The notes under the pieces were generated by a model that worked only from the letters and a program-made list of their open reading frames with translations, was not told where the DNA came from and searched no databases. This document shows positions 25,657 through 44,399 of a DNA stretch of 55,851 nt, piece by piece; within the stretch, counting starts at the first letter, position 1, and every line of letters begins with the position of its first letter. Source of the stretch: a candidate division FCPU426 bacterium (lineage in GTDB: Bacteria; Oederibacteriota; Muellerivitia; Muellerivitales; Muellerivitaceae); NCBI GenBank assembly GCA_963796105.1, contig CAWCKJ010000005.1, positions 1-55,851 on the forward strand, written 5' to 3'. Position numbers and translations under genes: made by a program.

Positions 25657-25686
25657 TTGTCCAATATGGGGTTCCAGATTGTACAA
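25657..25686 (+). repeat. 30-bp palindromic site, copy A (TTGTCCAATATGGGGTTCCAGATTGTACAA)
   Basis: Matches consensus TTGTCCAC-N3-GGGGACCC-N3-GTGGACAA. Confidence 0.75.
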
Positions 25687-25727
25687 AGGGGGAAGGTTAG
25701 ATAGTGGCAAATAAAAAGGAAGTTGTG

Positions 25728-25982
25728 ATGAAGATAAACATCAAAGCGTTCGGATTGACTTGTGGTTTGTTGTGGGGCCTGGGAGTTTTAGGCTTAACTT
25801 GGTGGGTCATCCTTTTCGAGGGGTCAACCCACGACCTGATGTTGCTTGGACACATCTACCGGGGTTATGACATTAGCCCCGCCGGAAGTTTGATTGGGGC
25901 TGCTTATGGCCTGGTGGATGGAGGGGTGGGCGGAGTCGTTTTCGCCTGGCTTTATAACGTTCTCTGCGTCAGGTTCAAATGA
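25728..25982 (+). CDS. Small two-TM membrane protein
   Basis: KAFGLTCGLLWG...YRGY.ISP.GSLIG..YG.VDG..GG..FAWLYN. Confidence 0.8.
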   Translation: MKINIKAFGLTCGLLWGLGVLGLTWWVILFEGSTHDLMLLGHIYRGYDISPAGSLIGAAYGLVDGGVGGVVFAWLYNVLCVRFK

Positions 25983-26001
25983 TCAGGGGTTGAGGGATAA
26001 G

Positions 26002-26031
26002 TTGTCCACGATGGGGACCCGTCGTGGACAA
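26002..26031 (+). repeat. 30-bp palindromic site, copy B (TTGTCCACGATGGGGACCCGTCGTGGACAA)
   Basis: Near-perfect 11-8-11 inverted repeat. Confidence 0.9.
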
Positions 26032-26239
26032 TCTTTTTGCTCTATTTTTGGGGGTGCCCGGCTCCTAAATCTCCGACTTAACGGGTTTATCTTCCCGGTC
26101 ATAGGCAAGATAGACTGGCAATGGAATAGAAAAAGAGTGGGGGTGATATAATAAAAGATAAGTACCCGGTAATGTTGTTGGACAAAGTCACCCGGGAAAT
26201 TCCAGATCATTCGTTGGAAGACAGTGTGTTGGAGGGAGT

Positions 26240-26890
26240 ATGGTTATGTACCGTTTGACTTATCCTCTGTTGCTGGTTTGCTTGTTTCTTGTGGGATGCT
26301 CGGCTCCATCCATCCCCTCTATTCCCGTAGGTCCCAAGCCGCATTATGTTGATGTCACCGCCTCTTTTGAAAGGCAGAATGGTAACCCTGGATACGTTTC
26401 CGTCACGATCACGGTCGATTCCCAAACGAACACGACAGCCGCGGTCGTTTTGACGGGCCCCGGTAGTCCGGTCACTATTCCTTACAACACCGGTTATGTT
26501 AAATATTACTTATGGGGACCGACTTATACGGCGGGTCAAACTTATACCCTCACCACCCAAGAGGGGAATACCGGTTCCACCACATCGACGGTGGTTGCCC
26601 CGGGCAACATTACGGAAGGTGCGAACGGTTCCCAAACCTCTTGGACCTACGATGGGCAAGTGGACGCCATCTCTGTCCTGCAAAATTCTTCTACATCCTA
26701 TACTTTCATCGCCACCGCGCCCATTGTTTCGCCTTTCCCGATACCCGGGTATGCCTATCCTTCAACCGGAACTTATGTACTCGACACCAACATCAGTAAT
26801 TCCTCTGGCATTTCAAAAGTTTCGGGAAATATCAGTACTTCCGGGTCATTCTGGGTTACAGATGATTTATTCACCACTATTACCAAGTGA
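26240..26890 (+). CDS. Ser/Thr-rich lipoprotein
   Basis: LVGC lipobox; GGAGG RBS. Confidence 0.75.
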   Translation: MVMYRLTYPLLLVCLFLVGCSAPSIPSIPVGPKPHYVDVTASFERQNGNPGYVSVTITVDSQTNTTAAVVLTGPGSPVTIPYNTGYVKYYLWGPTYTAGQTYTLTTQEGNTGSTTSTVVAPGNITEGANGSQTSWTYDGQVDAISVLQNSSTSYTFIATAPIVSPFPIPGYAYPSTGTYVLDTNISNSSGISKVSGNISTSGSFWVTDDLFTTITK

Positions 26891-27018
26891 GTTCTTTCGC
26901 CCTAGTAACAAAGGGGCCAGTGATTAGACCCCCTTTATCAACTGTTCAAAACAGTTGGCACAACCAACCCCTGCCGTTCCCCTTGTAGCAACTGTCTTTC
27001 AGTTGGCATTCTCCCCCA

Positions 27019-27135
27019 TATGAAAATGGGCGAGAGGTACAAAATAATTTAGAAGAATCAAAAAAATGGTTTGAGAAAGAAGTTGCCCAAGGAGATTAAA
27101 ATTCAAAGGAAGCTTTAAATCGGCTTAATCAATAA
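27019..27135 (+). pseudogene. Sel1-repeat gene 3' remnant
   Basis: Reads YENGREVQNNLEESKKWFEKEVAQGD*NSKEALNRLNQ*, with an internal stop; ends 2 bp before copy C. Confidence 0.65.
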
Positions 27136-27137
27136 GC

Positions 27138-27167
27138 TTGTCCACGACGGGGACCCATCGTGAACAG
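27138..27167 (+). repeat. 30-bp palindromic site, copy C (TTGTCCACGACGGGGACCCATCGTGAACAG)
   Basis: Matches consensus. Confidence 0.9.
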
Positions 27168-27194: not shown

Positions 27195-27794
27195 ATGAAA
27201 ATATTAAGGGCATTAATTATTTACGCAATCTTATTAACCGGTTTGCCTTTGCTGGGGCGGACTGAAATGCCGAACCCTCAAATCGCCGACTCTCAGACCC
27301 ATAATTCCTTTTTCGTCAAAGCCAGTGGAGGATTCGATTATTCGGAAACCACCTTACTTCGTTACAATCAGACGCAAATGGCACCATATGCAAGCGAAAT
27401 AGATATTAATATAAATGGCTTTAACCACTTCACCGGCTCCATAGCAGCAGGAATTGATTTTCCGGGTTGGCTCTCCTTATTCGCCAGCAGTGAATGGTAC
27501 TTAAAGGATTGGGCGATGATGGTAAACGGCCAATACACTTACCGGAAACTGGGCCTGGTTCAACCATACTTTTACTTAGGATTAGGGATGGATGTTAACG
27601 GGCAGGACTTGGGGCCTGCGCTACAACTGGGTTTGGGGGCTAATGTACCATTGGACAAAAACTTTTCTGTCTATTTGGAAGGCAAATCCTTTTTCACCGT
27701 GATCTTTAACAACAATAATGATCAACCCTCTCTCAATTTCTACCAATGGGAAATTTATCTTCCGCTTATGGCGGGTTTGAAAGTTAACCTTTGA
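27195..27794 (+). CDS. Small outer-membrane beta-barrel protein
   Basis: Signal peptide; QPYFYLGLG, GLGANVPL, AGLKVNL. Confidence 0.75.
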   Translation: MKILRALIIYAILLTGLPLLGRTEMPNPQIADSQTHNSFFVKASGGFDYSETTLLRYNQTQMAPYASEIDININGFNHFTGSIAAGIDFPGWLSLFASSEWYLKDWAMMVNGQYTYRKLGLVQPYFYLGLGMDVNGQDLGPALQLGLGANVPLDKNFSVYLEGKSFFTVIFNNNNDQPSLNFYQWEIYLPLMAGLKVNL

Positions 27795-27820: not shown

Positions 27821-27850
27821 AAGTCCACGACGGGGACCCGCATTGGACAG
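27821..27850 (+). repeat. 30-bp palindromic site, copy D (AAGTCCACGACGGGGACCCGCATTGGACAG)
   Basis: Matches consensus. Confidence 0.85.
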
Positions 27851-27892
27851 CTAAAAGGTGAAGATTATGCCGATGTTATGGGAGGTAATTAA

Positions 27893-28360
27893 TTGGGGCA
27901 TCAACTTAACTTTTTTTTAACTCCCCCGGATTTGAAAGAACTTGAAGATCGAATCCGTCAAAAAGAAAACGTTTTGTTTTTAATGGATAATATGAAAGAA
28001 CCAAAACCGAAAACCTTAACTATTGATGATATTGAACAAAGTGGTCTTTTTTTGAATTTGGCCCGGCCTGATGATCACAAGAAAATAAAAATGGAGTTTG
28101 TGCCGGCGCAAAAACATTGGACTTTCGAGAAGTTTCATTCCCCTTTGGTTGAATACGACCGCTGTTTCTTTGATGGTAAAGTTCTTCGACGTGGCAGACT
28201 TTACTACATTGACGGAGCCTATAATAAAAAGGGTGAGTGGGTCGATAAGTCCGATGATTTTAAAAATTGGGAACAGGGAATCCGACGGCCCAGCGGTTCC
28301 GCCTCAAAGTTAATTCGAATTCTTAAATCCCATCCGGAACTAATCTCAGAAATACGCTAG
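27893..28360 (+). CDS. Hypothetical (immunity-like) protein fused to the C-terminal half of an HTH antitoxin
   Basis: GGAGG RBS; tail NWEQGIRRPSGSASKLIRIL is typical of MqsA/HigA-like HTH C-termini. Confidence 0.6.
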   Translation: MGHQLNFFLTPPDLKELEDRIRQKENVLFLMDNMKEPKPKTLTIDDIEQSGLFLNLARPDDHKKIKMEFVPAQKHWTFEKFHSPLVEYDRCFFDGKVLRRGRLYYIDGAYNKKGEWVDKSDDFKNWEQGIRRPSGSASKLIRILKSHPELISEIR

Positions 28361-28364: not shown

Positions 28365-28394
28365 TTGTCCACGAAGGGGACCCAAAGTGGATAA
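28365..28394 (+). repeat. 30-bp palindromic site, copy E (TTGTCCACGAAGGGGACCCAAAGTGGATAA)
   Basis: Matches consensus; 4 bp after the stop codon. Confidence 0.88.
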
Positions 28395-28585: not shown

Positions 28586-28903
28586 ATGAAAATCAATTGG
28601 CGCAGGACTTTGTTGGCGGCAGGATTGGCAATCGCTGTGGCGACGCCGTTTATCGCGAAAGGCGCCGGAATCGACTTGACGATCAATATCAACGACGATA
28701 ACGAAACCCATTTCCATTTCAAGGATCAGACCATCAAGCATCATTCGGAAATGTGGAAAGCCGCCAAGGCCTTGGCCAATGCCAAAAAGTGCCTTTGGAA
28801 AGCCAAGGGTGATTTCGGCGGGCACCGTGAAACCGCCATCCAGAATATCAACGCGGCCCTGGATGAGATCAGGCTGGCCGACGATCACGCTATGGGGCGT
28901 TAA
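28586..28903 (+). CDS. Small secreted helical protein
   Basis: AAGGAG RBS; signal peptide; KAKGDFGGHRETAI motif. Confidence 0.75.
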   Translation: MKINWRRTLLAAGLAIAVATPFIAKGAGIDLTININDDNETHFHFKDQTIKHHSEMWKAAKALANAKKCLWKAKGDFGGHRETAIQNINAALDEIRLADDHAMGR

Positions 28904-29148: not shown

Positions 29149-29188
29149 CTGTTCACGAGGGGGAGCCTCGCGCACCGCAGCGCGAGGC
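29149..29188 (+). repeat. 30-bp-site copy F: left arm and core present; right arm replaced by a GC hairpin
   Basis: CTGTTCACGAG-GGGGAGCC, then GCCTCGCGC-ACCGCA-GCGCGAGGC. Confidence 0.6.
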
Positions 29189-29315: not shown

Positions 29316-30323
29316 ATGAAAACGCCACATAACTTGAAGCGCGACCTTTATCAAATCGCGGCGGGAATTGTCTTATTTCTCCTACCCATCGGGGTCCAGG
29401 CTTTTGATTTTACTCCCGACGCTTCCCGGGTGGTTTCGGACCCCTCCTATTTGCCCTTGGGGGGCCAGCTTTACGGCAGCACCGAATATACCTACGGTAA
29501 TACCGGCTCGAACACGGATAATTCATTGGGGGCGCTCAAAAGTTCGAACTCGACTCTTTCGAACACGGTCAACCAGGCTTTGGAGTACGGCCTCACCAGC
29601 GATTTCGCCCTGCGGGTCAGCGATTCTTATGAGTGGCCCTCCTCAACGACCAGTTACCCGGACGGCACGATTATGGTGACTCACTCCGACGGTTTTATCG
29701 ATCCGACTTTTGAGGCGATCTGGCGCGCGCTGGACCAGAAAGACCATGCCATGAACTGGGACCTTCTGGTGACTTACGCCCCCAACTTGTTTAACGCCCA
29801 ATCGGCGGACCCGACGGAAAACGGAACCGTGGCGCGGGGAGGCGATACGGAAACCTTCGGCACCGCGATCAGCCAGAAACTGAAGGATTTTACTTTTTAT
29901 TTTGAAGGCACCATGACCTACCTGGACAACCGGTCGGTTTTTAACCCGGGCAACAATATCACCACCAATTACGATCCCAGCTGGCAGTATTATATTGACG
30001 CGTCGACCCAGATGCGCTTTAGCCGGCAATGGTCCCTCAATTTGAGCTACTCCGAAACCTTCAACGACAATGTCAGCGCCTCTTACGTCAACAGCAGGGG
30101 CAACCTCATCAGCTCCATCAGCCAGCCAGGGGAGGTATTTGTATTTACAGCGGCTCTCAATTTTCATGCTGTCCCCAACCGATGCGTACTCTCGTTTATC
30201 TATAACCATTACTTCTACGACGGTGTCAGTTACACCAACGATACCGTGCCGAGCAACAGTACCTTTACGAATGGAAAAGGTGAGGATGTATTCAACGGAG
30301 AATTGCGCTATGTCTTTAATTAA
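29316..30323 (+). CDS. Outer-membrane beta-barrel protein
   Basis: Signal peptide; EYGLTSDF; terminal LRYVFN. Confidence 0.75.
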   Translation: MKTPHNLKRDLYQIAAGIVLFLLPIGVQAFDFTPDASRVVSDPSYLPLGGQLYGSTEYTYGNTGSNTDNSLGALKSSNSTLSNTVNQALEYGLTSDFALRVSDSYEWPSSTTSYPDGTIMVTHSDGFIDPTFEAIWRALDQKDHAMNWDLLVTYAPNLFNAQSADPTENGTVARGGDTETFGTAISQKLKDFTFYFEGTMTYLDNRSVFNPGNNITTNYDPSWQYYIDASTQMRFSRQWSLNLSYSETFNDNVSASYVNSRGNLISSISQPGEVFVFTAALNFHAVPNRCVLSFIYNHYFYDGVSYTNDTVPSNSTFTNGKGEDVFNGELRYVFN

Positions 30324-30386: not shown

Positions 30387-30416
30387 TTGTCTACTCAGGG
30401 GAGCCGGATTGGACGA
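30387..30416 (+). repeat. 30-bp palindromic site, copy G (TTGTCTACTCAGGGGAGCCGGATTGGACGA)
   Basis: Degenerate match to consensus. Confidence 0.7.
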
Positions 30417-30477
30417 TCGAATTTAAGGTTTTTACCTTTGTTGATTTTATAAAAATACCATGTTATATAATCCACTA

Positions 30478-30527
30478 ATGGGATGGAGTTCCCTTTAGCT
30501 GCCTTCTGGGGCTAATGACTCCTACTG
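30478..30527 (+). ncRNA. Fluoride (crcB) riboswitch 1
   Basis: GGGATGGAGTTCCC...GCTAATGACTCCTAC matches the crcB aptamer; a TTGATT/TATAAT-like promoter lies just upstream. Confidence 0.9.
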
Positions 30528-30558
30528 CTCATTTTTTTAAAGCGGTGGAGTTTTTTAT
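30519..30558 (+). terminator. Riboswitch expression-platform terminator
   Basis: CTCCTACTGCT/AGCGGTGGAG stem overlaps the aptamer 3' end and is followed by TTTTTT. Confidence 0.7.
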
Positions 30559-30642
30559 TAACATTAAAGAACCAGCCGCCAAGCGGGTTTTTTTATGTCC
30601 GCACCAAATCCCGGAAAGCACCATTGAAAGGGAAACTTCATC

Positions 30643-31848
30643 ATGGAACAAATCTTTACTATCGCTGCAATATGGCTTGGGTTGTCAATTCTTTCCGCTG
30701 TCATAGCATTCCACCTCAAGATTTCCATCGCCTTGGTTGAAATCTGTGTGGGCGTGGCCGTAGCCGCAGTGGCGGCTTTTTTCGGCAATGAGGAAGCATT
30801 GGGCTCCAACCAGGAATGGCTGCGTTTTTTAGCCTCATCCGGGGCCGTCCTGCTTACATTCCTGGCTGGCGCAGAACTTGAGCCCGATGTAATGCGAAAG
30901 AAGTTCAAAGAGGTGACTGTTGTTGGCCTGTTTGGTTTCTTCGCGCCTTTTCTTGGCTGCGCGGCCATTGCCCGCTATTTCCTGGGTTGGGAACTCCAAG
31001 CCAGCCTGCTTTGCGGAGTGGCGCTTTCGACCACTTCGATGGCGGTCGTCTATGCGGTGATGCTGGAAACCGGCTTCAACAAGACCGGATTCGGCAAAGG
31101 CATTCTTGGCGCTTGTTTCATTAACGATCTTGGGACAGTTATTGCCCTCGGTTTGCTGTTCGCCCCATTCACCTACAAGACAGTCGTTTTTGTCGTGGTT
31201 TCCGCCTTTGTGTTGGCGGTCCTGCCGTTCTTAAGCCGTGGGTTGCAGAATACCTATGGCAATCGCACTGCCGCAATCAGGACGAAATGGGTGGTTCTCG
31301 TGCTTTTCGCATTGGGGTCACTGGCGCTTTGGTCCGGCAGCGAGGCGGTTCTTCCCGCGTACTTAGTCGGAATGGTCTTAGCCGAATTCACAAACAGCGA
31401 TGCCCATTGGATTCATCGCTTGCGGACCCTAACCGTTGGCTTCCTCACCCCTTTTTATTTCATCCGGGCCGGAACACTGGTTTCCTTGCCCGCCTTGGTT
31501 TCAGCGCCCTTTATTTTCATCGCTCTTTTGGTGGGAAAGGTTTTCTCCAAGATTTTTGGGCTATATCCCGTAATCGGGCGGTTTAGACGAAACCACGACG
31601 AACGCTGGTATTACACTTTGATGATGTCCACGGGACTTACGTTCGGGACAATATCCGCATTGTATGGATTCTCCCATAATATCGTAACGCGGGACCAATA
31701 TTCCTTTTTGGTGGCCGTAGTCATTGCCAGCGCCATTGTTCCAACACTTATTGCAGGAAAGGTTTTCTTCCCAAGGCACCTCCTTCCCCAACCAAGTAGG
31801 CGTGCTGAAACGGTGTCCGATGAAGACTTAATGGATGAAGAGGGGTAA
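30643..31848 (+). CDS. Cation:proton antiporter (CPA2/Kef-type)
   Basis: About 12 TMs; LTFLAGAE, ALSTTSMAVV, INDLG, PFYF. Confidence 0.92.
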   Translation: MEQIFTIAAIWLGLSILSAVIAFHLKISIALVEICVGVAVAAVAAFFGNEEALGSNQEWLRFLASSGAVLLTFLAGAELEPDVMRKKFKEVTVVGLFGFFAPFLGCAAIARYFLGWELQASLLCGVALSTTSMAVVYAVMLETGFNKTGFGKGILGACFINDLGTVIALGLLFAPFTYKTVVFVVVSAFVLAVLPFLSRGLQNTYGNRTAAIRTKWVVLVLFALGSLALWSGSEAVLPAYLVGMVLAEFTNSDAHWIHRLRTLTVGFLTPFYFIRAGTLVSLPALVSAPFIFIALLVGKVFSKIFGLYPVIGRFRRNHDERWYYTLMMSTGLTFGTISALYGFSHNIVTRDQYSFLVAVVIASAIVPTLIAGKVFFPRHLLPQPSRRAETVSDEDLMDEEG

Positions 31849-31925
31849 CTGACGGCCAACTCCCACATCATTCGCCGAGTGTTTAATGGTTTGATTTATT
31901 GATCTGATGGAATAAAATTCCTTTT

Positions 31926-31973
31926 GGGGATGGAGTTCCCCTTAAACCGCCTTCAGGGCTGATGACTCCTATC
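31926..31973 (+). ncRNA. Fluoride (crcB) riboswitch 2
   Basis: GGGGATGGAGTTCCCC-TTAAACCGC...GCTGATGACTCCTA. Confidence 0.92.
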
Positions 31974-32066
31974 GCGGCAGTTCCGTGGCGGGTGTCAGAG
32001 GCCTCCTTCCAAGCCTTCCATGTGACGCCGTTAGATGTTTTTCCTTACTTAGTTTAGAACGGCGGC

Positions 32067-33815
32067 GTGGTCATGAACCCTGTTTTCCAGGAACAACCGG
32101 ACACTAACACAAAAGTCCCAAAAACCGGCCAACCATTCCAACCATGGGTGGCGGAAGTCCTATCGTTCATCGGCTCCGCCAGTCGCCGTTTCTCCATTCC
32201 TGCTCTGCTGCCTCCCCTTCAAAAACTTTCCGAGTTTAACCAGGAATTCGGTTCTCTGGACATTGTGCTTTTGGGAAGATTTAAGGCGGGGAAAAGTTCT
32301 CTCTTAAACTCCCTTTTGAATCTGGAAATTCTTCCCACGGACGTGTTGCCAGCTACGGCAGTCGTCACCCGTGTTATGGCCGGTATTTCAGATCGCATGA
32401 CTGTCTATTTCCGGGACGGCAGAATTGAAAATACGTCCCCGCGCTTTATTGCCCAATTCGCAACTGAAAAGGACAATCCCGAGAACCAAAAGGAAGTCGT
32501 CCGGGTGGATGTCGAATTGGAAGGAATCGGGTCTTGGGAGGGCGTCCGCTGGGTGGACTCACCGGGCATCGGAAGCCTACATGCCCATAACACGGAAGCC
32601 ACATTGGACTGGCTGCCCAAAGTGGGGGTGGCGCTGATGGCGGTGTCCGCTGACCACCCGCTCTCCGAGGATGACCTGTCCTTGATACAACAGTTGGAAG
32701 AACACACCCCCAAGACGCTACTTTTGGTGACCAAAGCCGACCTTGTCGCAAAGGAACAAATGGACTCCATCCTAGGATATGTCCGATCCCAGTTGAAGAA
32801 CCGTCTTGGTCGTGAAATTCCGGTTATTCCCGTTTCCATAAAGTCGGGATACGAAGCGACTCGGGAATACCTTCGTCGTTTTCTAATTGACCAACTGATA
32901 TCCAACCGTTTCTCCGAATCGGAGGGAATTCTCCGGTATAAGCTCCAAGCCTTATTGAAGACTTGCCGCAGCTTTCTGGAATTGGCGTTGCAGGTGGCTC
33001 TGGCCGGGCAAAAGGCGCGCCAGGAACTTTCCGGTTTGATAAATGAGGAATGGCAGTCCCTTTCCATGTTGGAAAACGAGATGTACAACTTACAAGATAT
33101 TGCGAGCCACCGGATCAGGCAGGCGCTTGAGGAGCGACTTCTCCCGTATAGGGAGGGAATTGCGCGTGAACTGCAATTGGAATTGGAAGTTGAAATGAGT
33201 GGATGGAGAAGTCATCTAGGAAAGGAAACCGCGAAATACCAGGCCTGGCTGGAAGCGCGGTTAACCGAAAAGCTCGAACAGCTGGGCCGTGAAAACATCC
33301 AAGTCGGTGATACCCATGTCCGGGAAATCGAGTCTTCCGTGAACCGCTCGGCTAGGGCATTTGCAGCTCGAATATCCGATAAAGTCCGGGAGGCCCTGCA
33401 TTTCGAATATACCGGTCCTGTTTTTGGTGGTGAGGTGGTTCTCCCGGAAAAACCGTCCATGCACTTGGGAAACGTGTTTGATACCCCCTTTGAAGGTGTC
33501 TGGTTCCTGGTGCCCATGTGGATTTTCCGGCCCCTCATACACCGGCATTTTCTACATACCATCCCCTGGCAGGTGGAGAAGCACCTCTACCGCCTATGCT
33601 CCGAATGGACGGAAGCCATGATGGAAGCTGTTCAAAGCATGGCGAAGGATTTCCAGCACCATGTCAGGGACGAGATGGAAACCTTCCAGGGGCTGCTGGA
33701 AGCCAGCCGGGATTCGGGGGAGGACCTCCGTATGGCGTTGGAACAGCTAGGAAAATTTGAGCGATCTGTTCAAAAAAGAACGGATTCGGGACAAGTCGAT
33801 CAAGGGAACGTTTAG
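32067..33815 (+). CDS. Bacterial dynamin-like GTPase
   Basis: GRFKAGKSS (G1), LPAT (G2), DSPG (G3), TKAD (G4); long helical C-terminus. Confidence 0.9.
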   Translation: MVMNPVFQEQPDTNTKVPKTGQPFQPWVAEVLSFIGSASRRFSIPALLPPLQKLSEFNQEFGSLDIVLLGRFKAGKSSLLNSLLNLEILPTDVLPATAVVTRVMAGISDRMTVYFRDGRIENTSPRFIAQFATEKDNPENQKEVVRVDVELEGIGSWEGVRWVDSPGIGSLHAHNTEATLDWLPKVGVALMAVSADHPLSEDDLSLIQQLEEHTPKTLLLVTKADLVAKEQMDSILGYVRSQLKNRLGREIPVIPVSIKSGYEATREYLRRFLIDQLISNRFSESEGILRYKLQALLKTCRSFLELALQVALAGQKARQELSGLINEEWQSLSMLENEMYNLQDIASHRIRQALEERLLPYREGIARELQLELEVEMSGWRSHLGKETAKYQAWLEARLTEKLEQLGRENIQVGDTHVREIESSVNRSARAFAARISDKVREALHFEYTGPVFGGEVVLPEKPSMHLGNVFDTPFEGVWFLVPMWIFRPLIHRHFLHTIPWQVEKHLYRLCSEWTEAMMEAVQSMAKDFQHHVRDEMETFQGLLEASRDSGEDLRMALEQLGKFERSVQKRTDSGQVDQGNV

Positions 33816-34245
33816 GCGAACGGATTTTGTACCCTTGCTTTGCGTTATGAAACGTTGGGTACGCACCGAAAAAGGTCTTCCAAACATGCCAATTAAAGGC
33901 CGAAAAAGAAAAGACAGGGAAATCCTTAGGGAAGACGCCCTCAGGCCAAGCCCTTATCTAGGCTATGGATATCTTAACCTGGGGAATTATTTCCTTCAGC
34001 ACAGAGCCTTTAAATTGGCGGAAACCCAGTTCCGCCGTGCCATTTGGCTCAACCCATACGAGCCCAAATTTTTATACGAACTGGCCGTTTGTCTTTTTGA
34101 ACAGGGGCGATTGGAGGAGGCCATGAAAGTGGCTTCAAGAGTGAAAAAGACCGGGAAATTCGATTCGCTTGTCGATGAACTCTTGGAACTTTTAGGACGA
34201 TCCCATCGGCGACGAAGCCGCATGGAAGGTCTCGGAGGCGGGTAA
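33757..34245 (+). CDS. TPR protein (start possibly ~33886)
   Basis: YLNLGNYF..AETQFRRAIWLNP TPR helices. Confidence 0.7.
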   Translation: MSDLFKKERIRDKSIKGTFRRTDFVPLLCVMKRWVRTEKGLPNMPIKGRKRKDREILREDALRPSPYLGYGYLNLGNYFLQHRAFKLAETQFRRAIWLNPYEPKFLYELAVCLFEQGRLEEAMKVASRVKKTGKFDSLVDELLELLGRSHRRRSRMEGLGGG

Positions 34246-36350: not shown

Positions 36351-37621
36351 ACCCCTTTAAGAAATTAAAAAACCTGGTTTTCCTGGTCAAACGAAGCATG
36401 AGGCAGCATGCCCTTTCAACTGCGATCACGGTGGTTTCGGTGGCACTGGCGACCGGATTGACCATGTCAGTCTTTTCCATCCAGCACCAGACCCGGGGTG
36501 CTTTCACGGGCGGCCAAGCGGGGTTTGACGCGGTTTTGGGCGCCAGGGGAAGCCAACTCCAACTGGTCCTGAACGCGGTTTTCCAATTGGAAACATCCCC
36601 CGGCAACATCCCCTGGTCGCTTTACGAGGTGGTGAAAAAAGACCCGAGGGTGGAACTGGCCGTTCCCTACGCGGTGGGTGACAACTATATCGGTTACCGA
36701 ATCGTCGGGACGACCGGGGATATATTCACGAAATTCGAATACCAAAACGGCCGGCACCTTTCGGCCCAGCCAGGCGGAAGGGTGTTCGATCCGGCGAAAA
36801 GGGAGGCCGTGATCGGCAGTTTTGCGGCGCGGAAACTAAACCTCCAGGTGGGCTCCACATTCAAACCATACCACGGGCTTTTCTTTGACCCCAACATGCA
36901 GCATGAGGAAGTGTTCCAGGTGGTGGGTATCCTCCAACCGACGAATACGCCCTCAGACCGGGTCATTTGGATTCCCATCGATGACGTTTATCGCATGAAG
37001 GGCCATGTTCTCCGGGGAACGGGGAAAGAGTATGTGGCCAAGGAGGGCGTGGAAATACCGGATGCCGACAAGGAAGTCTCCGCCGTCATGTTGAAATTCT
37101 ACAGTCCCCAGGCGGGCTTCATGCTGGACCAGACCATCAACCGCCAGGGAAAGGTGGCTACCCTGGCCTGGCCTATAGGGAAGGTGATGGCCGAGCTGTT
37201 CGACAAGATGGGATGGGTGACGAAAATCCTCACGCTGGTGGCCTACCTGGTGATGTTGGTGGCAGCCGCCTCCATCCTTTCCAGCCTGTACAACACGCTG
37301 AATGAGCGGAGGCGGGAGTTCGCCATTTTGCGGTCCCTGGGCGCGAGGCGTTCCACAGTGTTTTCTGCCATCGTGCTGGAAGCAACCGCAATCGCTGGGT
37401 TGGGCTCCCTCGCCGGGTACGGCATCTACCTTGCCATTTTTTCAGTAACCGCCGTGGTGGTGCGCCAGCAGACGGGTGTGGTGCTGGATGTGTTCCAGTT
37501 TCACCCGTCCCTGTTATCCGTGCCCGTCGGCATGACGGTCTTAGGTGCTATTTCCGGGCTCGTCCCGGCCCTCAGGGCTTATTCCACCGACGTGGCTCGT
37601 AATTTGGACCCCTTGTCTTAA
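36347..37621 (+). CDS. ABC permease (MacB/FtsX-type)
   Basis: GARGSQLQLVLN, ERRREFAILRSLGA. Confidence 0.92.
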   Translation: MNPFKKLKNLVFLVKRSMRQHALSTAITVVSVALATGLTMSVFSIQHQTRGAFTGGQAGFDAVLGARGSQLQLVLNAVFQLETSPGNIPWSLYEVVKKDPRVELAVPYAVGDNYIGYRIVGTTGDIFTKFEYQNGRHLSAQPGGRVFDPAKREAVIGSFAARKLNLQVGSTFKPYHGLFFDPNMQHEEVFQVVGILQPTNTPSDRVIWIPIDDVYRMKGHVLRGTGKEYVAKEGVEIPDADKEVSAVMLKFYSPQAGFMLDQTINRQGKVATLAWPIGKVMAELFDKMGWVTKILTLVAYLVMLVAAASILSSLYNTLNERRREFAILRSLGARRSTVFSAIVLEATAIAGLGSLAGYGIYLAIFSVTAVVVRQQTGVVLDVFQFHPSLLSVPVGMTVLGAISGLVPALRAYSTDVARNLDPLS

Positions 37622-37645
37622 CCCGAACATATAAGGAGTAACGAG

Positions 37646-38134
37646 ATGAAAAAAATTAACCCATTCGACGGTTTGGTTACCGCTGCGATCTTGTCGTTAT
37701 TTTTTTTACCAGCCGCTCAAGTCTCAGCCCATGAACACCATCCACCCCACCATGGAACGCTGGTGGAATTGGGTGAGGAATTCGCCCATGTGGAACTTCT
37801 TTTGGATTCCTCAACAGGGGAACTGGACGCTTTCGTCCTGGACGGGGAGGCAGAAGATCCCGTGAGGATTTCCCAACCGTCGATCCAAATCAAGGTGAAA
37901 GGAAAAGGCGGGTCTTACGTGATGAAGCTTGTTCCCATAGCCGATGCTTTGACGGGGGAGGTCGTCGGCAACACTTCCGAATACCGGGGAATTTCGAAAA
38001 AACTTAAGGGTGTGAACAAATTCAAGGGAACCATCGCTTATATCAAGGCGAAGGGCGAAGCCTTTAAAAACGTATGGTTTCTCTATCCCGAGGGAAACGA
38101 GGGCGTGAAGCCCTCGGACCATTCGGAAAAATAA
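37646..38134 (+). CDS. His-rich periplasmic metal-binding protein
   Basis: Signal peptide; HEHHPPHHG..ELG..AHVE. Confidence 0.75.
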   Translation: MKKINPFDGLVTAAILSLFFLPAAQVSAHEHHPPHHGTLVELGEEFAHVELLLDSSTGELDAFVLDGEAEDPVRISQPSIQIKVKGKGGSYVMKLVPIADALTGEVVGNTSEYRGISKKLKGVNKFKGTIAYIKAKGEAFKNVWFLYPEGNEGVKPSDHSEK

Positions 38135-38146
38135 GGAAGGGAAAAA

Positions 38147-38779
38147 GTGCTTGAGCATAAATTGGGGTTTCGCGGGGCCGCATTGGTTGCCTTTGGCCTT
38201 ATTTGGCTGGGCCTGATTCTATTGCTACTCGTCATTCCTGGCGAAATTATGGAAATGAGACGCGACGTGTCAAAACCAAGGACCCGTTTTTCCGAAGTGG
38301 ACGGCTATTTAAAGGTCGGTTTCGACTTGCTCAGTTCCTACCCGATTGATTCCCCCGACGACATGGAGGACATGAACACCCGCCGGGATGATTTGAACAG
38401 TGATCCGTTTGAGCCGAAAGTGAAGGCTCGGAAAAAGCAACAGGTAGTCCCGGAATTCATCCGGGCTTTGGACGGCCGAAAGGTCATGGTGGAAGGTTTC
38501 ATGATCCCTATGCTCTCGGAGAAGTACCGGGTGTTGTCATTCATCCTCGCCCAAAGCCAGATGACCTGTTGCTTCGGCATCGCCCCCAAGTTGAACCAAT
38601 GGATCGACGTCACGATGGAAAAGGGAAAGTCAACCGAGTGGAAGATGGATGTCCCGATCACGATATTCGGGACTTTAAGCGTGGGCACGAAATACGACCG
38701 GCAAAACAAGGGATGGTGCCTTTACCGGATGGTTTCCGACAAGGTCGGGATTCCATCCGAGAAGGCATGGTTTTATTGA
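38147..38779 (+). CDS. DUF3299-like protein, paralogue 1
   Basis: ALDG.KV..GFMIP..FIL...CCFG..P..NQWI.V. Confidence 0.8.
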   Translation: MLEHKLGFRGAALVAFGLIWLGLILLLLVIPGEIMEMRRDVSKPRTRFSEVDGYLKVGFDLLSSYPIDSPDDMEDMNTRRDDLNSDPFEPKVKARKKQQVVPEFIRALDGRKVMVEGFMIPMLSEKYRVLSFILAQSQMTCCFGIAPKLNQWIDVTMEKGKSTEWKMDVPITIFGTLSVGTKYDRQNKGWCLYRMVSDKVGIPSEKAWFY

Positions 38780-38806
38780 GGCTCAAGCGCGAATGAGGAG
38801 TCAATT

Positions 38807-39430
38807 TTGAAAAATAATTCCCTTAGAAAAAAGTTAGTTTTCAATATTCGGTTAGGGCTTTTGCTGGGGGTGGGTTTAATGATTTCCGCCAATCCCATCA
38901 CGGGCCAACCGGCCGGACCAGCGCCGACGATCTACCCGATCACGGCGGTGGACCTGAAATCCGCCCCCATCACCGTTTATCCCAAACTAGAAGGCCATCC
39001 GTTCGTGACATGGGACACCCTTGCGCATTTCCGCTATGACGCGCCCGAAATCGAGGAGGAGATCGATCCCAGATTGAGGTTGAAGAAAAATAAATTCCCC
39101 GTTCCAGCATTCATCAAGAGATTGGACAGGGTGAATATCGCGGTCGTGGGTTTCATGATTCCCCTGGACACGAACGAGGCCGGGGACAAGGCCACCTCCT
39201 TCATCCTGGCCAGGAGCCAGGCGACCTGCTGTTACGGGATCACCCCCAAAATGAACGAGTGGATGTTCGTGCGCATGGGCGGTGGGATGGACGCCGACGC
39301 TGTGATGGATGTGCCCGTGACGGTCTTCGGCACGCTCTCCGTTGGGGAGAAAAAAAAGGCCGATATGGGCTGGAGCCTTTACCGGATGGTGGCGGACAAG
39401 GTCCTTGCCCCCAAGGAAACCATATGGTGA
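38807..39430 (+). CDS. DUF3299-like protein, paralogue 2
   Basis: Same motif (TCCYG). Confidence 0.8.
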   Translation: MKNNSLRKKLVFNIRLGLLLGVGLMISANPITGQPAGPAPTIYPITAVDLKSAPITVYPKLEGHPFVTWDTLAHFRYDAPEIEEEIDPRLRLKKNKFPVPAFIKRLDRVNIAVVGFMIPLDTNEAGDKATSFILARSQATCCYGITPKMNEWMFVRMGGGMDADAVMDVPVTVFGTLSVGEKKKADMGWSLYRMVADKVLAPKETIW

Positions 39431-39451
39431 ACGGACGGAAAGGTACCTGAC

Positions 39452-40183
39452 ATGAAAGTCTATGTCCGCAACATTTGGCCCGGGAAGAAGAGGGTGAAAG
39501 TTGAGTACCAATCCTCCATCCCCCCGAGGGACTCAAGTTTTTGGGCCATCATTGTTTTTACCGGGGTAGTTGGGTTGGTCATGTTCCTGGTCCTTTTGAA
39601 GGGATCCTATACCCCGTCCATGACCCGATGGTGGAAGGACCAGGCCCACAGGGAGGAAGCCGGGAAAACCTATGCCTTGAACCCGAAGGAACCAAAGAGT
39701 CCGGCCGGATCGGCGGGGTTGAAAATCCCTTACCCTAAAGTCGGGGATTATTTCCAATTGGGTTTCGACACCTTGAGCGGTTTCCCCTCCGGAAAACCGG
39801 CGTTAAATGGCCCTGGGTCGGGCGTCGGCCCAAAAGCCGAAGCTCCGTTTTCAAAAGTCCCGTCCGACATCCGGGCTTTGGACGGACAAAAAATATCGGT
39901 GGTGGGTTTCATGATCCCCATGACAGTGGAGAAAAACAACGCCCGCACCTTCATCCTGGCGCAAAGCCGGGCCACCTGCTGTTACGGCGCGGTTCCAAAC
40001 CTTAACCAGTGGATTTACGTGGACATGGCCCGGGGAAAAACCGCCGAGGCGATCATGGACGTGCCGGTCACGGTTTTCGGCACGTTGAAAGTGGGGACAC
40101 AGTTCGATGAGCGAAGCACCGGTTGGTGCCTTTACCGGATGACGTCCGACAAAGTCGCGTGGCCGAGGAAAGCATGGTTTTGA
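39452..40183 (+). CDS. DUF3299-like protein, paralogue 3
   Basis: Same motif (TCCYG). Confidence 0.8.
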   Translation: MKVYVRNIWPGKKRVKVEYQSSIPPRDSSFWAIIVFTGVVGLVMFLVLLKGSYTPSMTRWWKDQAHREEAGKTYALNPKEPKSPAGSAGLKIPYPKVGDYFQLGFDTLSGFPSGKPALNGPGSGVGPKAEAPFSKVPSDIRALDGQKISVVGFMIPMTVEKNNARTFILAQSRATCCYGAVPNLNQWIYVDMARGKTAEAIMDVPVTVFGTLKVGTQFDERSTGWCLYRMTSDKVAWPRKAWF

Positions 40184-40200
40184 GACTTAAGGGGGATTCA

Positions 40201-40491
40201 TTGGAATTTAAGAAAATTGTTTTTAAATCGTCCCTGGTGGCATTGGCTTTGGTTTTTTTGCTGATCATGACCGGGGAAGGATTTTTCCATAGGCACCACG
40301 GTTCCGAGTCGGAGCGGGATTGCCCCTATTGCCAATGGTGCCATTCGGGGTCCCAAGGCACTGAAGTGTTAATTCGACCAATGCTTTTTCCTGTTTTTAT
40401 TGTTGCTCTACTTTTTATTAAAAAATTTGAAGTCGCTTTTGCAAGTTTCTTTTTCAACTCCGGAAGGTCCCCGCCTCAAAACCTCTTGTAA
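40201..40491 (+). CDS. Second DUF2946/CruR-like leader peptide (RSPP)
   Basis: TTG start after GGGGGA; TM-HRHH..DCPYC-TM-GRSPP. Confidence 0.7.
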   Translation: MEFKKIVFKSSLVALALVFLLIMTGEGFFHRHHGSESERDCPYCQWCHSGSQGTEVLIRPMLFPVFIVALLFIKKFEVAFASFFFNSGRSPPQNLL

Positions 40492-40536
40492 CGAAACATC
40501 AACGGCCTTCACAGGCCGAAATTTCAAGGAGGAAGA

Positions 40537-41625
40537 ATGAAATCATTTATTCGCTTATTTGTTTGTTGTATTACCCTCGTTTTCGCTGTGCTTCCCCTGC
40601 ACGCCCAAACCCGGTCGATCATCTCGAACTTGGCCAATCCGGCCATCGGCATGAGCGCGCTGTTTTTGGCCCAGGCCGCGCCGGATTTGAACACACCCGG
40701 TTCCACCGGGCCAAGTTTCCAGGAAGCGGAAATCAGCGTCATTTCCACCGTGGACCCGCTTTGGACTCTGGCGGGCAACTTCACCTTCGACGCGGAGACC
40801 GGCGTGGCGGAGGAAGCATACGCCACCACCACCGGCATTCCTAACATCCTGATCAAGGTCGGGGAATTTCGCGCGGCTTTCGGGAAGCACGGTATGCTCC
40901 ACACCCATGCCTTCCCCTTCATCCAGGCGCCGCTCATTATGTCTAACAGCGTCGGGGAGGAGGGATACAAGAACGCGGGCCTGGAAGCGGCCTGGATGAC
41001 CCCCCTGCCCTGGTTCTGCGAGCTGACCCTGGGCGGGTATCGGCAGGTAGAGGCCACGCCGGACCATCCCCTCGATTTCAACGGGGGTTCCACCGGCAGC
41101 ATCCCCTACCTCGTCCACCTGAAAAACCTCTTTGACGTGGATGAAAACACGACCATGGAATTGGGCGCGTCCGATTTAACCGGAATGGGGGACGACGGTC
41201 TGCACCACGCGGTTTATGGGGCCGACCTCACTTTCCGAAATGTCCCGCTTCGGCGATCCAACGAGCGGGGATGGATCCTCCAGGGGGAATACATCAAAAA
41301 GGTTTCATACAACGACAGCGTCTATAACCAGGAATCGGACGGGTGGTACGGTTCATTCCAGTACCGCTGGGGACAGGAATGGTGGTCCGGCGTCCGGGTG
41401 GAGGAGGCATTCAATAGTGTCTCCGACGTTGCCGACAACCCAACGGACACCTACCTCTCTGGCCATGTTCAGCGGGCCTCCGCCAATATCGCCTGGCTTC
41501 CCTCGGAATTCTCCGAGATGAAACTGGAATACGGCTTGACTCGGAACGACGCGGGCACAGTGGACAATCGGGTGATGCTCCAATTCAACTACATCATCGG
41601 TTTCCACCCGCCACATGCGTACTAA
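40537..41625 (+). CDS. Outer-membrane metal-uptake beta-barrel
   Basis: NPAIG, EEAY, FGK..LHTH.FPF, PSEFS, terminal GFHPPHAY. Confidence 0.8.
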   Translation: MKSFIRLFVCCITLVFAVLPLHAQTRSIISNLANPAIGMSALFLAQAAPDLNTPGSTGPSFQEAEISVISTVDPLWTLAGNFTFDAETGVAEEAYATTTGIPNILIKVGEFRAAFGKHGMLHTHAFPFIQAPLIMSNSVGEEGYKNAGLEAAWMTPLPWFCELTLGGYRQVEATPDHPLDFNGGSTGSIPYLVHLKNLFDVDENTTMELGASDLTGMGDDGLHHAVYGADLTFRNVPLRRSNERGWILQGEYIKKVSYNDSVYNQESDGWYGSFQYRWGQEWWSGVRVEEAFNSVSDVADNPTDTYLSGHVQRASANIAWLPSEFSEMKLEYGLTRNDAGTVDNRVMLQFNYIIGFHPPHAY

Positions 41626-41671
41626 AAAGGAGCCGCAAATGTTTAATACCAACAACTTTCAGGAGGATTTC

Positions 41672-42586
41672 ATGAAATCGTCGATGAAGCTATTTTTGAG
41701 TTTTGCCTTTTGTCTCTTCACCATGCCCGCCTTCGCGGATTTGAAGGTGGCGACGTCTCTATCGGATCTGGCTTCGGTAGCCCAATCCGTGGGAGGCAAG
41801 CATGTGACGGCCATTAGTCTTTGCAAGGGTTACGAGGATCCGCACTTCGTGCCGGCCAAGCCCAGCCTAATGAAGGCCATTCAGGACGCCGACGTCTTCG
41901 TGTCGGTCGGCCTAGAGCTGGATGGGGGCTGGCTGCCGCTGGTCATCCCGGGGAGCCGAAACCCTAAAATCCAACCTGGTGCCAAGGGCTTTATTGACGC
42001 CTCCGAGGGGATTGAGGTGCTGGACAAGCCCGTGGGCACGGTCAGCCGCGCCGAGGGCGATATCCATCCCCTGGGCAACCCGCATTACTATTCCGATCCG
42101 GGGAACCTGGAAATTGTCGCCGACCATTTGGCCAACATTTTTAGGGAATTGGATCCGGCGAACGCCGACGAGTACCAGGCCAACGCCAAGGCCTTCGACG
42201 CGAAAATGGAGAAGGCCATCAAGGGCTGGAAGGCCCAATTGAAGCCCTATAAGGGCGCCAAGCTCGTGACCTACCACGAGAACTTCAAATACTTTACCGA
42301 GCGGTTCGGTTTGAAGCTCTTCGGGACCGTGGAACCCAAGCCCGGTATTCCACCCAACCCCCGGTACTTATCCGAAACCGCCGAGGCCATGAAGTCGGCC
42401 GGTGTCAAAGTGGTGTTGTACCAGCCCTATTACGAGGCCGACGAGGCTCAAGCGCTGGCTAAAAAGGCGGGCGCCACGGCCTACGAAATTCCTAACGAAG
42501 TTGGCGGGGTGCCGGAAGCCAAGGATGTTTTTTCCAAGTTCGACTTCATCGTGTCGATCTTGGCCAAAGCCCTAGGGGGTAATTAA
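41672..42586 (+). CDS. ZnuA/TroA-family metal ABC substrate-binding protein
   Basis: DPHF, GDIHPLGNPHY, YH, EPKPG. Confidence 0.92.
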   Translation: MKSSMKLFLSFAFCLFTMPAFADLKVATSLSDLASVAQSVGGKHVTAISLCKGYEDPHFVPAKPSLMKAIQDADVFVSVGLELDGGWLPLVIPGSRNPKIQPGAKGFIDASEGIEVLDKPVGTVSRAEGDIHPLGNPHYYSDPGNLEIVADHLANIFRELDPANADEYQANAKAFDAKMEKAIKGWKAQLKPYKGAKLVTYHENFKYFTERFGLKLFGTVEPKPGIPPNPRYLSETAEAMKSAGVKVVLYQPYYEADEAQALAKKAGATAYEIPNEVGGVPEAKDVFSKFDFIVSILAKALGGN

Positions 42587-42591
42587 GAGTC

Positions 42592-43431
42592 ATGTCCAAC
42601 TTCATCGCCGTGATGGGTCTTCCGATCCTGGCCTGTGTTTTATTGGTCCTGATCCACCCAACCTTAGGGACTCATGTCTTGGCCCGGGGCGTCATTTTCG
42701 TGGATCTGGCCCTGGCCCAAATCGCCGCCATGGGGCAAAGCGTGGCTTTCCTAATGGGGGCCGAGCCCCATGACCCGAGCACTTATTATTGGTCTTTCGT
42801 CCTCACCTTGCTGGGCGCGGCGCTTTTCAGTTTCCTGTGGGACCGGAATCATTCGGTCCTGCAGGAAGCCTTTATCGGTATCGCCTTTTCGCTTGCCACC
42901 GCGGCTTCCCTCCTGCTTTTGGCCAACGCGCCGCACGGCGCCGAGCACGTGCAGCACTCTCTCAGTGGGGAAGCCTTAGGCTGGGTGACGGCAAAGGACA
43001 TCGGGTTGATGGCTTTCTTTTATAGCATCGTGGGATTGTTTCTTTATTGGAACCGAAAAACTCTCACCCTCTGTTCCACCAACCCCCATGAAGCCAACCG
43101 CCAGGGTATTTCGGTGAAACTTTGGGATTTCCTTTTTTACGCTGCTTTTGGGCTGGTTGTCACCAGCTCCGTGAAAATCAGCGGCGTATTGGCTGTTTTT
43201 TCCTATTTGATCGTTCCTCTGGTTTGCGCTACCCTTTTGGGGTTTAAGGGCCCCACACGTCTTTTCTGGGCCTGGGGAATCGGCTTTTTGGTTTCAATAT
43301 TGGGCGCCTGGTTGTCCTATACCCGGGACCTTCCGATGGGGGCCTCCATTGTTTGCGTTTTCGGGCTGGCGGTTATCGTGATTTCCATCGCGACCCGGAT
43401 GAAAAACGCCGATTACGGGAGGCTGAAATAA
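42592..43431 (+). CDS. ZnuB-family metal ABC permease
   Basis: RGVIFVDLALAQ, EAFIG, GVLAVFSYLIVP. Confidence 0.9.
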   Translation: MSNFIAVMGLPILACVLLVLIHPTLGTHVLARGVIFVDLALAQIAAMGQSVAFLMGAEPHDPSTYYWSFVLTLLGAALFSFLWDRNHSVLQEAFIGIAFSLATAASLLLLANAPHGAEHVQHSLSGEALGWVTAKDIGLMAFFYSIVGLFLYWNRKTLTLCSTNPHEANRQGISVKLWDFLFYAAFGLVVTSSVKISGVLAVFSYLIVPLVCATLLGFKGPTRLFWAWGIGFLVSILGAWLSYTRDLPMGASIVCVFGLAVIVISIATRMKNADYGRLK

Positions 43432-43620
43432 TAAAATATTGTCCCCCCATCAGTTCACAGTGAAAGCAACACACATTCGTTTCTGGGTCTGCACTGAAAA
43501 CAAACGGACTGAACGGACCGGTTGTTTCCTATTCTACCCATGCAGAAAATAATAAACCTTTAAGGAATCCGAATCTCTGAAACGTCTCACATTTTTAAAA
43601 GAAAATGAAAGGGTAAAATT

Positions 43621-43845
43621 ATGAAAAAAACAGATAAGCAAATCATACTTAAATTCGGGGCGAACGTCCGAAAGATCCGTAAAATACATGGCTGGTCTCA
43701 GGAGAAGTTGGGCAACCAGTCGGGTTTGGCGGCCAACTTCATCGGTTTCGTGGAACGCGGCGAGAGAAGCATCACGCTTAAGAATATCGTCAAGATCCAC
43801 AAAGCTTTGCGTTGTCCTATCAACAAACTCTTCGAGGGAATTTAA
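43621..43845 (+). CDS. XRE-family HTH regulator
   Basis: FGANVRKIR..GWSQEKL..FIGFVERGER. Confidence 0.9.
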   Translation: MKKTDKQIILKFGANVRKIRKIHGWSQEKLGNQSGLAANFIGFVERGERSITLKNIVKIHKALRCPINKLFEGI

Positions 43846-44046
43846 AATAAAGTGTTTTCATGATGGACTTCACCACTTGGTTGGTTCCTTCAGCCATGCT
43901 TGATTCCGATAGAATTCCGTAGCGTCCCGTTGTGGTAATTCCTTAGAGTGCAACCTCGCTAGAGTTGCGGTGGTTCATTAATTCTTGTCTACCCCGAAAT
44001 GGACAGGTGATCTTGAAAGGGTTATGAGGAAGGAAGATAGGAAAAA

Positions 44047-44310
44047 ATGTTTTGCAAGCATTTAAGGTTAAGACAACTAAGGACAACCGGAGAAAAGGGC
44101 AGTCAAGTTGATGACGCCCAAACCGCTAATTGCAGGTTTAAGCTGACGGGAGAAGATAAGGCAAAAGAGGTTTATTTGAAGCTTTTAGAAATGGGAATAG
44201 AGAAGGGCGCTGATCCTGGAGTTTATTGTCCCTTTTACCCTAAAGGTAGCTACTCAACATGTCCTTGGTATACGCGGGACTATGAATTAAAAGATCCTTT
44301 GAATGTTTAA
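44047..44310 (+). CDS. Small Cys-containing hypothetical protein in an integron-cassette-like unit
   Basis: Preceded by GTTATGA (44021); its stop codon lies inside GTTTAAC of the downstream attC-like site. Confidence 0.6.
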   Translation: MFCKHLRLRQLRTTGEKGSQVDDAQTANCRFKLTGEDKAKEVYLKLLEMGIEKGADPGVYCPFYPKGSYSTCPWYTRDYELKDPLNV

Positions 44311-44359
44311 CCCCGGCGACCATGTTGGCTGATATGCCCGTGGGCATGGTGGGTTATGC
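44305..44359 (+). other. attC-like site (55 bp)
   Basis: GTTTAAC...ACCATG...CATGGT..GTTATGC; core boxes and inner stem are complementary. Confidence 0.55.
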
Positions 44360-44369
44360 GGCCAAAAAG

Positions 44370-44399
44370 TTGTCCATTCCGGGGACCCTTCGTGAACAA
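44370..44399 (+). repeat. 30-bp palindromic site, copy H (TTGTCCATTCCGGGGACCCTTCGTGAACAA)
   Basis: Matches consensus in the same orientation; 73 bp upstream of cas1. Confidence 0.85.

Follow-up and report, generated by a model that had tools for sequence, protein, structure and literature searches.

Integrons are the textbook gene-stockpiling platform, and all of them are based on the integrase IntI and folded attC sites; to our knowledge, the origin of their cassettes is still open. The serine recombinases CcrA, CcrB and CcrC of the staphylococcal cassette chromosome (SCC) and XisF move cassettes between directly repeated sites, and in the case of pdif (XerC/XerD), lox and FRT sites short dyads flank gene-sized modules, with the enzyme supplied in trans. 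Here we analyze a stretch of 55,851 nt from contig CAWCKJ010000005.1 of a candidate division FCPU426 bacterium (the whole stretch is called the window; the genome assembly that contains it is G000), in which an earlier note had read eight palindromic sites as an integron-analogous cassette system driven by a recombinase encoded outside the window. That proposal is borne out by three observations: the sites stand in co-oriented arrays, the neighboring DNA changes at the center of the site, and a candidate enzyme lies beside the arrays of relatives. We consider it likely that the palindromes are gene-cassette joints, probably cut and rejoined at a central GA; the candidate enzyme is a short form of serine recombinase, encoded next to such arrays in relatives.

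A 30-bp palindromic site and its arrays

A matrix built from 413 non-redundant sites, with full sites counted at >= 20 bits, gives the consensus TTGTCCACGACGGG-GA-CCCGTCGTGGACAA, i.e., 14-bp inverted arms flanking an asymmetric GA (14-2-14, 30 bp). This layout replaces the 11-8-11 dyad proposed earlier. Positions 12–19 are all well conserved, as is the left arm in general, and variation falls on right-arm positions 20–23 and 30; the three-base "N3" spacers of the earlier description are thus variable on the right arm and conserved on the left. In the window, the literal earlier pattern with <=3 mismatches yields six strand-matches at four places (none in 100 shuffles), while the matrix scan finds seven full sites, all on the + strand (20.8–50.8 bits), and nothing above 5 bits elsewhere. 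All eight coordinates given before were correct, and the copy at 29149, noted there as partial, is a half site made of a left arm and GA:

Site A, 25657..25686, + strand: decayed, core GT, the array's first site; 20.8 bits; 64 bases past the last stop of the preceding operon
Site B, 26002..26031, + strand: near-consensus, no mismatches to the literal pattern; 50.8 bits
Site C, 27138..27167, + strand: 47.7 bits
Site D, 27821..27850, + strand: 37.4 bits
Site E, 28365..28394, + strand: 37.9 bits
Site F, 29149..29164, + strand: half site, left arm and GA, then an unrelated hairpin; 17.9 of 29.6 bits as a half site, <5 as a full site
Site G, 30387..30416, + strand: decayed, closes the tight cluster; 25.3 bits
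Site H, 44370..44399, + strand: 36.3 bits; 5' joint of the cas1-cas2 packet

Genome-wide, G000 holds 49 sites (against none in the reversed genome), 39 of them in 10 clusters, of which eight have a single orientation. Of 30 other family genomes, 26 have the site pattern, as does the one genome of the sister family, against none of 29 others (reversed-pattern control, 0); a record that carries it is titled Candidatus Firestonebacteria (L057; L numbers denote loci), and viral contigs gave no exact match. Interval statistics, drawn from G000 and loci L001–L106 for adjacent pairs within 6 kb, describe regular arrays: 301 of 315 adjacent pairs are co-oriented, intervals between sites have a median length of 861 bp, 171 of 301 contain a single open reading frame (ORF), the largest ORF runs forward in 277 of 297, and a median of 20 bp separates the last stop from the next site. 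A profile scan of the genome and its relatives, as suggested in the earlier note, therefore shows copies clustered in co-oriented arrays, and the pattern is not one of dispersal in both orientations with breakpoints away from the site.

This layout is the architecture of integron cassette arrays. Both integrons and the related attC clusters that have no integron-integrase (CALINs) consist of cassettes in one orientation, mostly with one gene each and with the site shortly after its stop codon, and hold many toxin–antitoxin pairs, which are likewise frequent in the cargo here, and both include arrays with no enzyme nearby; half of CALINs lie in genomes without IntI (PMC4889954). Group II introns are a further common trait. 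They home to attC sites in integrons (PMC3001079), and in the present arrays, where they carry reverse transcriptase and maturase domains, they lie just behind the site in 18 and inside it in 3 of 453 non-redundant junctions. At least two intron lineages home to the 30-bp site, one just behind it and one within the right arm (L012, L014, L027, L038; C4:35647 and 39555 in G000), and the two G000 copies have no reverse transcriptase ORF. At L015:8250–12724, a pair of cassette rows point away from one another, and two cassettes are present as an inverted duplication that surrounds remnants of introns.

In their components, however, the two systems differ. G000 lacks IntI, its top TIGR02249 match reaching 67 bits for a cut-off of 265, and the RYYYAAC/GTTRRRY boxes of attC, whose lack had been remarked before, were matched by regular expressions, without an attC covariance model, at just two forward and two reverse of the 453 junctions (control, 1). 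No attI site or Pc promoter was found at the arrays, and the comparison of array flanks revealed no shared gene upstream of them.

Exchange at the center of the site

If the sites are joints, rearranged cassettes should reveal where they part. The arm-linkage test used pairs among the 453 junctions that have one 100-bp flank in common, with intron starts excluded and clusters counted. At >= 95% flank identity, junctions with only the right flank in common have identical right arms in 92% of 12 clusters (chance 2.6%) and identical left arms in 19% (chance 11%); when only the left flank is in common, 83% of 12 clusters have identical left arms and 21% have identical right arms. Half sites locate the break more closely. 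Among 419 strong 12-bp arms, 60 have a poor partner, and these left arms keep G 49, G 42, G 40 and A 37 times at positions 13–16, whereas position 17 splits evenly (C 24, G 24). Because each arm stays with its own side in rearranged packets and the half sites break after GA, we place the exchange centrally; taken together, linkage and half sites point to the central dinucleotide GA, positions 15–16.

The same is seen in the window. At site B, a copy of cassette A-B on contig C6 of G000 and a contig of sequencing run X2 both match the window up to 26017, the A of the central GA; at site E, the left arm and the upstream DNA (an antitoxin packet) are common with a junction in the relative G001, and the right arm differs. 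Modules had been expected to be reordered at the site core, and both in relatives and at window site B the neighbor does change at the site center. A cassette consists of the right arm of one site, one gene or toxin–antitoxin pair, and the left arm of the next site. Since the site is exchanged at its center, each cassette has a half site at both ends, which, with the fixed length of 30 bp, sets these cassettes apart from those of integrons. Three sequencing runs from one study, covering 5–7% of words each in short, sparse contigs, yielded no joints and hence no evidence on circles.

After several half sites the DNA turns into similar GC-rich hairpins directly behind GA, as at F (29165–29200), C6 ~185650 and ~188800 of G000, L014, L026, L105 and L137; these look as if an element like the repetitive extragenic palindromic (REP) sequences had acted as a pseudo-site.

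A shortened serine recombinase in relatives

No recombinase recurs beside the window array or the other arrays of G000, and both serine recombinases of this genome (607 and 510 aa) have the full length. When the family was searched for resolvase domains, however, relatives turned out to encode a short serine recombinase (275–281 aa, ~277; one gene is at L122:1465–2301) whose gene points at an array and stops 7–35 bp from the array's last site. By Pfam and alignment—sequence matches in the PDB being limited to the catalytic domain—the short protein comprises the domains PF00239 and PF07508 (above cut-off in four of four proteins), retains the YVRVSS and DRLYRN motifs, and has neither zinc ribbon nor coiled coil; unlike its 510- and 607-aa relatives it has no PF13408 match, and it ends just before their CGHCG motif. 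Its closest full-length relatives are 50–61% identical over the common part. The earlier idea of a recombinase outside the window thus gains a candidate beside arrays in relatives, while the layout that accompanied it, which points to a tyrosine enzyme, needs changing: the data fit a serine enzyme with a 2-bp GA core.

A site lies behind the gene in nine of 11 near-complete short recombinases, 7–35 bp from the stop in eight of the nine, and the remaining two have a site interrupted by an intron and a site cut by the contig end. In contrast, none of 72 long relatives has one (32 of them with >= 1 kb downstream), nor do three intermediate and three contig-cut rows; together these make up the 89 proteins of the recombinase tree. 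A site hidden within the full-length coding sequences was also considered and rejected, none being found in or behind the 72 long relatives, and the intermediate-length relatives L170, L172 and L173 have no other palindromic array behind them. Six further C-terminal fragments of the short recombinase abut sites; of four others, two are farther from one (441 bp in the first case, 2.5 kb and a weak site in the second), one has none and one is at a contig end. The short proteins form one clade in a quick tree (Shimodaira–Hasegawa-like approximate likelihood ratio test, 100), with a median ratio of nonsynonymous to synonymous substitution rates (dN/dS) of 0.074 over the 28 of 45 pairs that are unsaturated. 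From these comparisons, the short form is a distinct gene family, not a set of integrases broken by insertion. Five of the 31 family genomes were found to carry the full gene, whereas 68 genomes from other families gave no copy; genomes with it have a median of 65 pattern matches, against 4.5 in the 24 genomes without gene or fragment.

Several families resemble this enzyme in part. Its best NCBIfam matches are Ccr and XisF proteins (CcrB 75 bits), far short of cut-offs of 900, 700 and 375 bits; the Ccr family scores are 75, 70 and 30 bits for cut-offs of 900, 700 and 900. It has about half the length of Ccr/XisF, and the gene-sized cassettes here lie in many arrays rather than as large islands at one locus. 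It is derived from the large serine integrases (LI/A118, phiC31, Bxb1), with which it has in common the catalytic and recombinase domains and, probably, a central crossover dinucleotide that would set orientation. Neither their zinc ribbon nor their coiled coil is present, however, and where they use a single attP/attB pair there is one symmetric 30-bp site type in dozens of copies. Relative to integrons, the candidate gene is convergent at the tail of the array, whereas intI is divergent at its head.

We propose that one recombinase subunit would bind each 14-bp arm in double-stranded DNA. Any site could then recombine with any other, so that DNA between co-oriented sites would leave as a one-site circle, which could re-insert at any other site, and the non-palindromic GA would keep the cassettes in one direction. 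Now and then, crossover at a look-alike sequence would found an array elsewhere and produce half sites of the kind seen at F. The enzyme would travel on a conjugative-type element, and the orphan array of the window may await it in trans or may be frozen. As it has no zinc-ribbon or coiled-coil domain, the short enzyme would treat all sites alike. In LI integrase, the part of each half site that the recombinase domain touches is about 13 bp long, and orientation is set by the central dinucleotide (PMC3783163); the length of the 14-bp arms matches this contact area. LI integrase becomes promiscuous, treating pairs of different site types alike, once its coiled coil is deleted (PMC5499577).

A tyrosine recombinase acting in trans (XerC/D, a recombinase-in-trio (RIT) triad or another) on 11-8-11 or 12-6-12 targets, with the serine gene a passenger, strikes us as quite unlikely. 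G000 does have 36 PF00589 matches, and some of these lie no more than a few kb from a site (e.g., the RIT triad at C4:40640–43922), and the conservation of positions 12–19 and the linkage data would be compatible with a 6–8-bp overlap. Yet clustering of 1021 proteins shows none recurring beside the arrays of relatives, IntI is missing from G000, the half sites break after position 16 and not after 18–19, and it is the short serine gene, under purifying selection, that abuts the site in nine of 11 cases. The break after a 2-bp GA core, the co-orientation of the sites and the want of a tyrosine recombinase tied to the arrays also separate them from pdif, lox and FRT sites.

Were the sites REP-like single-strand hairpins, copied or cut by an HUH enzyme of the REP-associated tyrosine transposase (RAYT) type, exchange would be directed by the hairpin; we give this very little credence. 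The consensus does fold into a long hairpin (site B, predicted -12.2 kcal/mol), group II introns are found inserted within the site or directly after it, and ORFs near some arrays are RAYT-like by their motif. Many sites nevertheless barely fold (H -1.9, G -2.9, E -3.0 kcal/mol), which favors double-strand recognition over an attC-type hairpin, and the exchange takes place in the middle of the palindrome rather than at its foot. A cassette's own arms pair at 11.02 of 14 positions and the arms in place at 11.03, and on these figures we also rejected an attC-like rule under which the cassette's own arms would pair better.

A regulatory palindrome (operator, pair of DnaA boxes or terminator), shuffled by ordinary homologous recombination between short repeats, is just as improbable. 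Such a role would suit the position of the sites a median of 20 bp behind stops, the terminator-like score of site B, and a resemblance of the arm, in eight of nine bases, to a DnaA box. Only one of seven sites in the scanned region is terminator-like, however; position 9 is G in 90% of sites and A in 2%, the half sites join at GA without further homology, and the sites punctuate accessory genes in arrays.

Recombination by the short serine enzyme is itself opposed by several observations. Sites occur in 27 of 31 family genomes, the full gene in only five and not in G000, and the association of site counts with the gene is confounded by kinship and assembly quality; the link between enzyme and site rests on adjacency and domain logic. 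Two of the 10 site clusters in G000 are mixed in orientation. Neither a promoter nor an attI-like entry site was identified, promoter-like matches numbering 8 against 7.5 expected. At 85% flank identity, the identical arm drops to 63% of 17 clusters (right) and 56% of 24 (left), so that arms also drift or get replaced over time. By linkage alone, the crossover could lie anywhere from the variable outer part of the left arm to position 20, and its placement at GA rests on the half sites—a set that also contains chance matches, intron insertions and 1-bp indels; clear right-half orphans are rare (about 3 of 69 rows). Finally, coiled-coil-less LI integrase is inefficient in intermolecular recombination (PMC5499577), so integration by the short enzyme would need an unseen trick.

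Window cassettes, the Cas1-Cas2 unit and the conjugative element

The modules between the window sites are as follows:

Cassette A-B, 25728..25982, + strand: 84-aa membrane protein of the holin_4 family (NF037947, 78.5 bits, cut-off 70)
Cassette B-C, 26246..26890, + strand: 214-aa probable lipoprotein (signal peptide then Cys in the sequence); no Pfam or NCBIfam match
Cassette C-D, 27195..27794, + strand: 199-aa probable outer-membrane barrel, from a reading of the sequence; no family match; stop 26 bases before site D
Interval D-E, 27868..28360, + strand: frameshifted ORF joined to the 3' end of a helix-turn-helix (HTH) antitoxin packet, from translations
Cassette E-F, 28586..28903, + strand: 105-aa probably exported protein; no Pfam or NCBIfam match
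Cassette F-G, 29316..30323, + strand: 335-aa probably exported or outer-membrane protein; no Pfam or NCBIfam match
G-H block, 30417..44369, + strand: 14-kb fluoride/metal-transport block, composite, from Pfam matches

Copies of cassette A-B lie behind other sites with 91–95% identity (C6:189752–189420, L012, L077). One gene per interval from A to G, as first described, is right for most intervals; D-E is instead a damaged chimera of two packets, its final 149 bases being 92.6% like an antitoxin packet at L138, and the fusion is likely a deletion that took out one site. G-H had been listed with the modules of the array. The matrix scan places no site within it, and parts of it recur separately on C3, C11 and C4, in homologs that start without a full site; the block is composite, and cassette status for the whole of it is unsupported. 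Its fluoride character stands, with two fluoride riboswitches at 30470–30531 and 31917–31978, before a cation/proton antiporter and a dynamin-family GTPase gene. A homolog of the metal-uptake block (34954 onward) at L144:5250–5640 (G001:C16) begins ~240 bp behind a site with a 1-bp deletion.

Behind site H lies a Cas1-Cas2 unit with a second type of repeat:

cas1, 44443..45483, + strand: 346 aa; PF01867 E 3e-68; TIGR00287 251 bits; about 100% identical in the relatives G002 and G025
cas2-like ORF, 45480..45815, + strand: 111 aa; named by position and resemblance, no Pfam or NCBIfam match; 92–93% identical in other packet copies
37-bp repeat of clustered regularly interspaced short palindromic repeats (CRISPR) type, copy 1, 45838..45874, + strand: directly after cas2
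37-bp CRISPR-type repeat, copy 2, 49378..49414, + strand: 3.5 kb downstream of copy 1

From site H through the repeat after cas2, 1,505 bp are 97–98% identical in other genomes, across three genera. In G002 and in three copies in G025, cas1 follows a site at equal distance with the right arm identical, while the left arms and the upstream DNA differ, which upholds the view that H opens this module; in G025:C15, where the unit has two repeats, the following site stands 2.5 kb farther along and closes it. By these comparisons the cas1-cas2-repeat unit behind site H reads as one of the cassettes. It also exists outside arrays, since three copies (G026, G030 and a fragment on C4 of G000) have no upstream site.

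The 37-bp repeat is a separate, near-invariant family with 14 copies in G000, neighbors lying 1.3–6.9 kb apart. Such repeats with kilobase inserts occur as well at C6:78386–82698 of G000 and at G025:C3 60721–75250, and they interrupt a short recombinase gene (L160) and cas1 itself (G025:C3). At L236 (G026:C8 42206–44801), the 2.6 kb between two of them contain two 30-bp sites, a cassette and a short recombinase cut mid-gene. The products of each machine, cassette system and Cas1-Cas2, lie inside the other's arrays. That the 30-bp sites are themselves CRISPR-type repeats laid by the neighboring Cas1-Cas2 is suggested by site H standing 43 bases before cas1, but this notion has next to no chance and is largely refuted: that Cas1 has its own 37-bp repeat and is found in only five of 31 family genomes, the three copies just named have no upstream site, the 30-bp sites are arm hybrids rather than duplicated units, and intervals have a median of 861 bp in place of 30–45-bp spacers, with no Rfam CRISPR match in the window.

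The array follows a conjugation operon, whose end ~65 bp before it had been noted correctly (stop at 25592, 64 bases before site A):

VirB4-type conjugation operon, 13423..25592, + strand: VirB4/TraC-type matches below cut-off; 85–93% identical to the element in G001

The short recombinase of G001 and G026 is part of a VirB4-type element. The G001 element is present twice in G000, on C14 (98–99.9%; the match stops ~1.4 kb short of the gene) and in the window (85–93%; ~9 kb short). The window array therefore lies on the right kind of element, yet it is an orphan, as the short recombinase was not found in the G000 assembly. We rejected the whole element as a giant cassette ending at site A, the homologous operon having no site behind it in G000 C14, G001 or G026. 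The operon's last gene (24096–25592) encodes a tetratricopeptide repeat (TPR)–GGDEF protein and has the same place in those three. A 234-bp stretch at 49139–49371, inside the insert between the two window 37-bp repeats, is 94% like DNA upstream of the G001 short recombinase and is repeated on C14 and C4 of G000.

Returning to the shortened recombinase as the enzyme of the cassettes, a wider scenario can be drawn that we regard as possible but doubtful: a large serine integrase, stripped of its zinc ribbon and coiled coil, turned into an enzyme that shuffles a 30-bp site symmetrically; it makes cassettes at the GA of look-alikes of the ribosome-binding GGAGG upstream of genes; and it carries a genus-crossing Cas1-Cas2 cassette that inserts kilobase DNA between 37-bp repeats. 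If true, crossover at GGAGG just upstream of genes would explain forward, promoter-poor, single-gene cassettes. Five of seven half sites reading GAGG have a long ORF 6–9 bases on, against 9% of 243 ordinary sites over an equal range of distances (a post hoc count with putative starts), which makes crossover at ribosome-binding sites possible; support for this cassette-genesis step is thin. Examples are L042, L046, L101 and C4:678514 of G000.

A literature search, with subscription journals mostly outside its coverage, found no description of such a cassette system, an integron look-alike probably built on a serine recombinase, or of kilobase CRISPR spacers. If the proposed enzyme is the right one, the same architecture has arisen from a serine recombinase and a 30-bp double-stranded site, i.e., by convergent evolution, and such platforms would escape tools that search for intI and attC. 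How directionality is achieved when zinc ribbon and coiled coil are missing could be probed with a natural serine recombinase of ~277 aa that has a single short symmetric site, an enzyme that might also serve as a compact DNA-stacking tool, and the half sites offer a testable route to cassette genesis. The window further links the cassette system with an effector-less, kilobase-capturing Cas1-Cas2 unit that moves between genera as a cassette. Should the wider scenario prove true, it would represent a third route to an integron.

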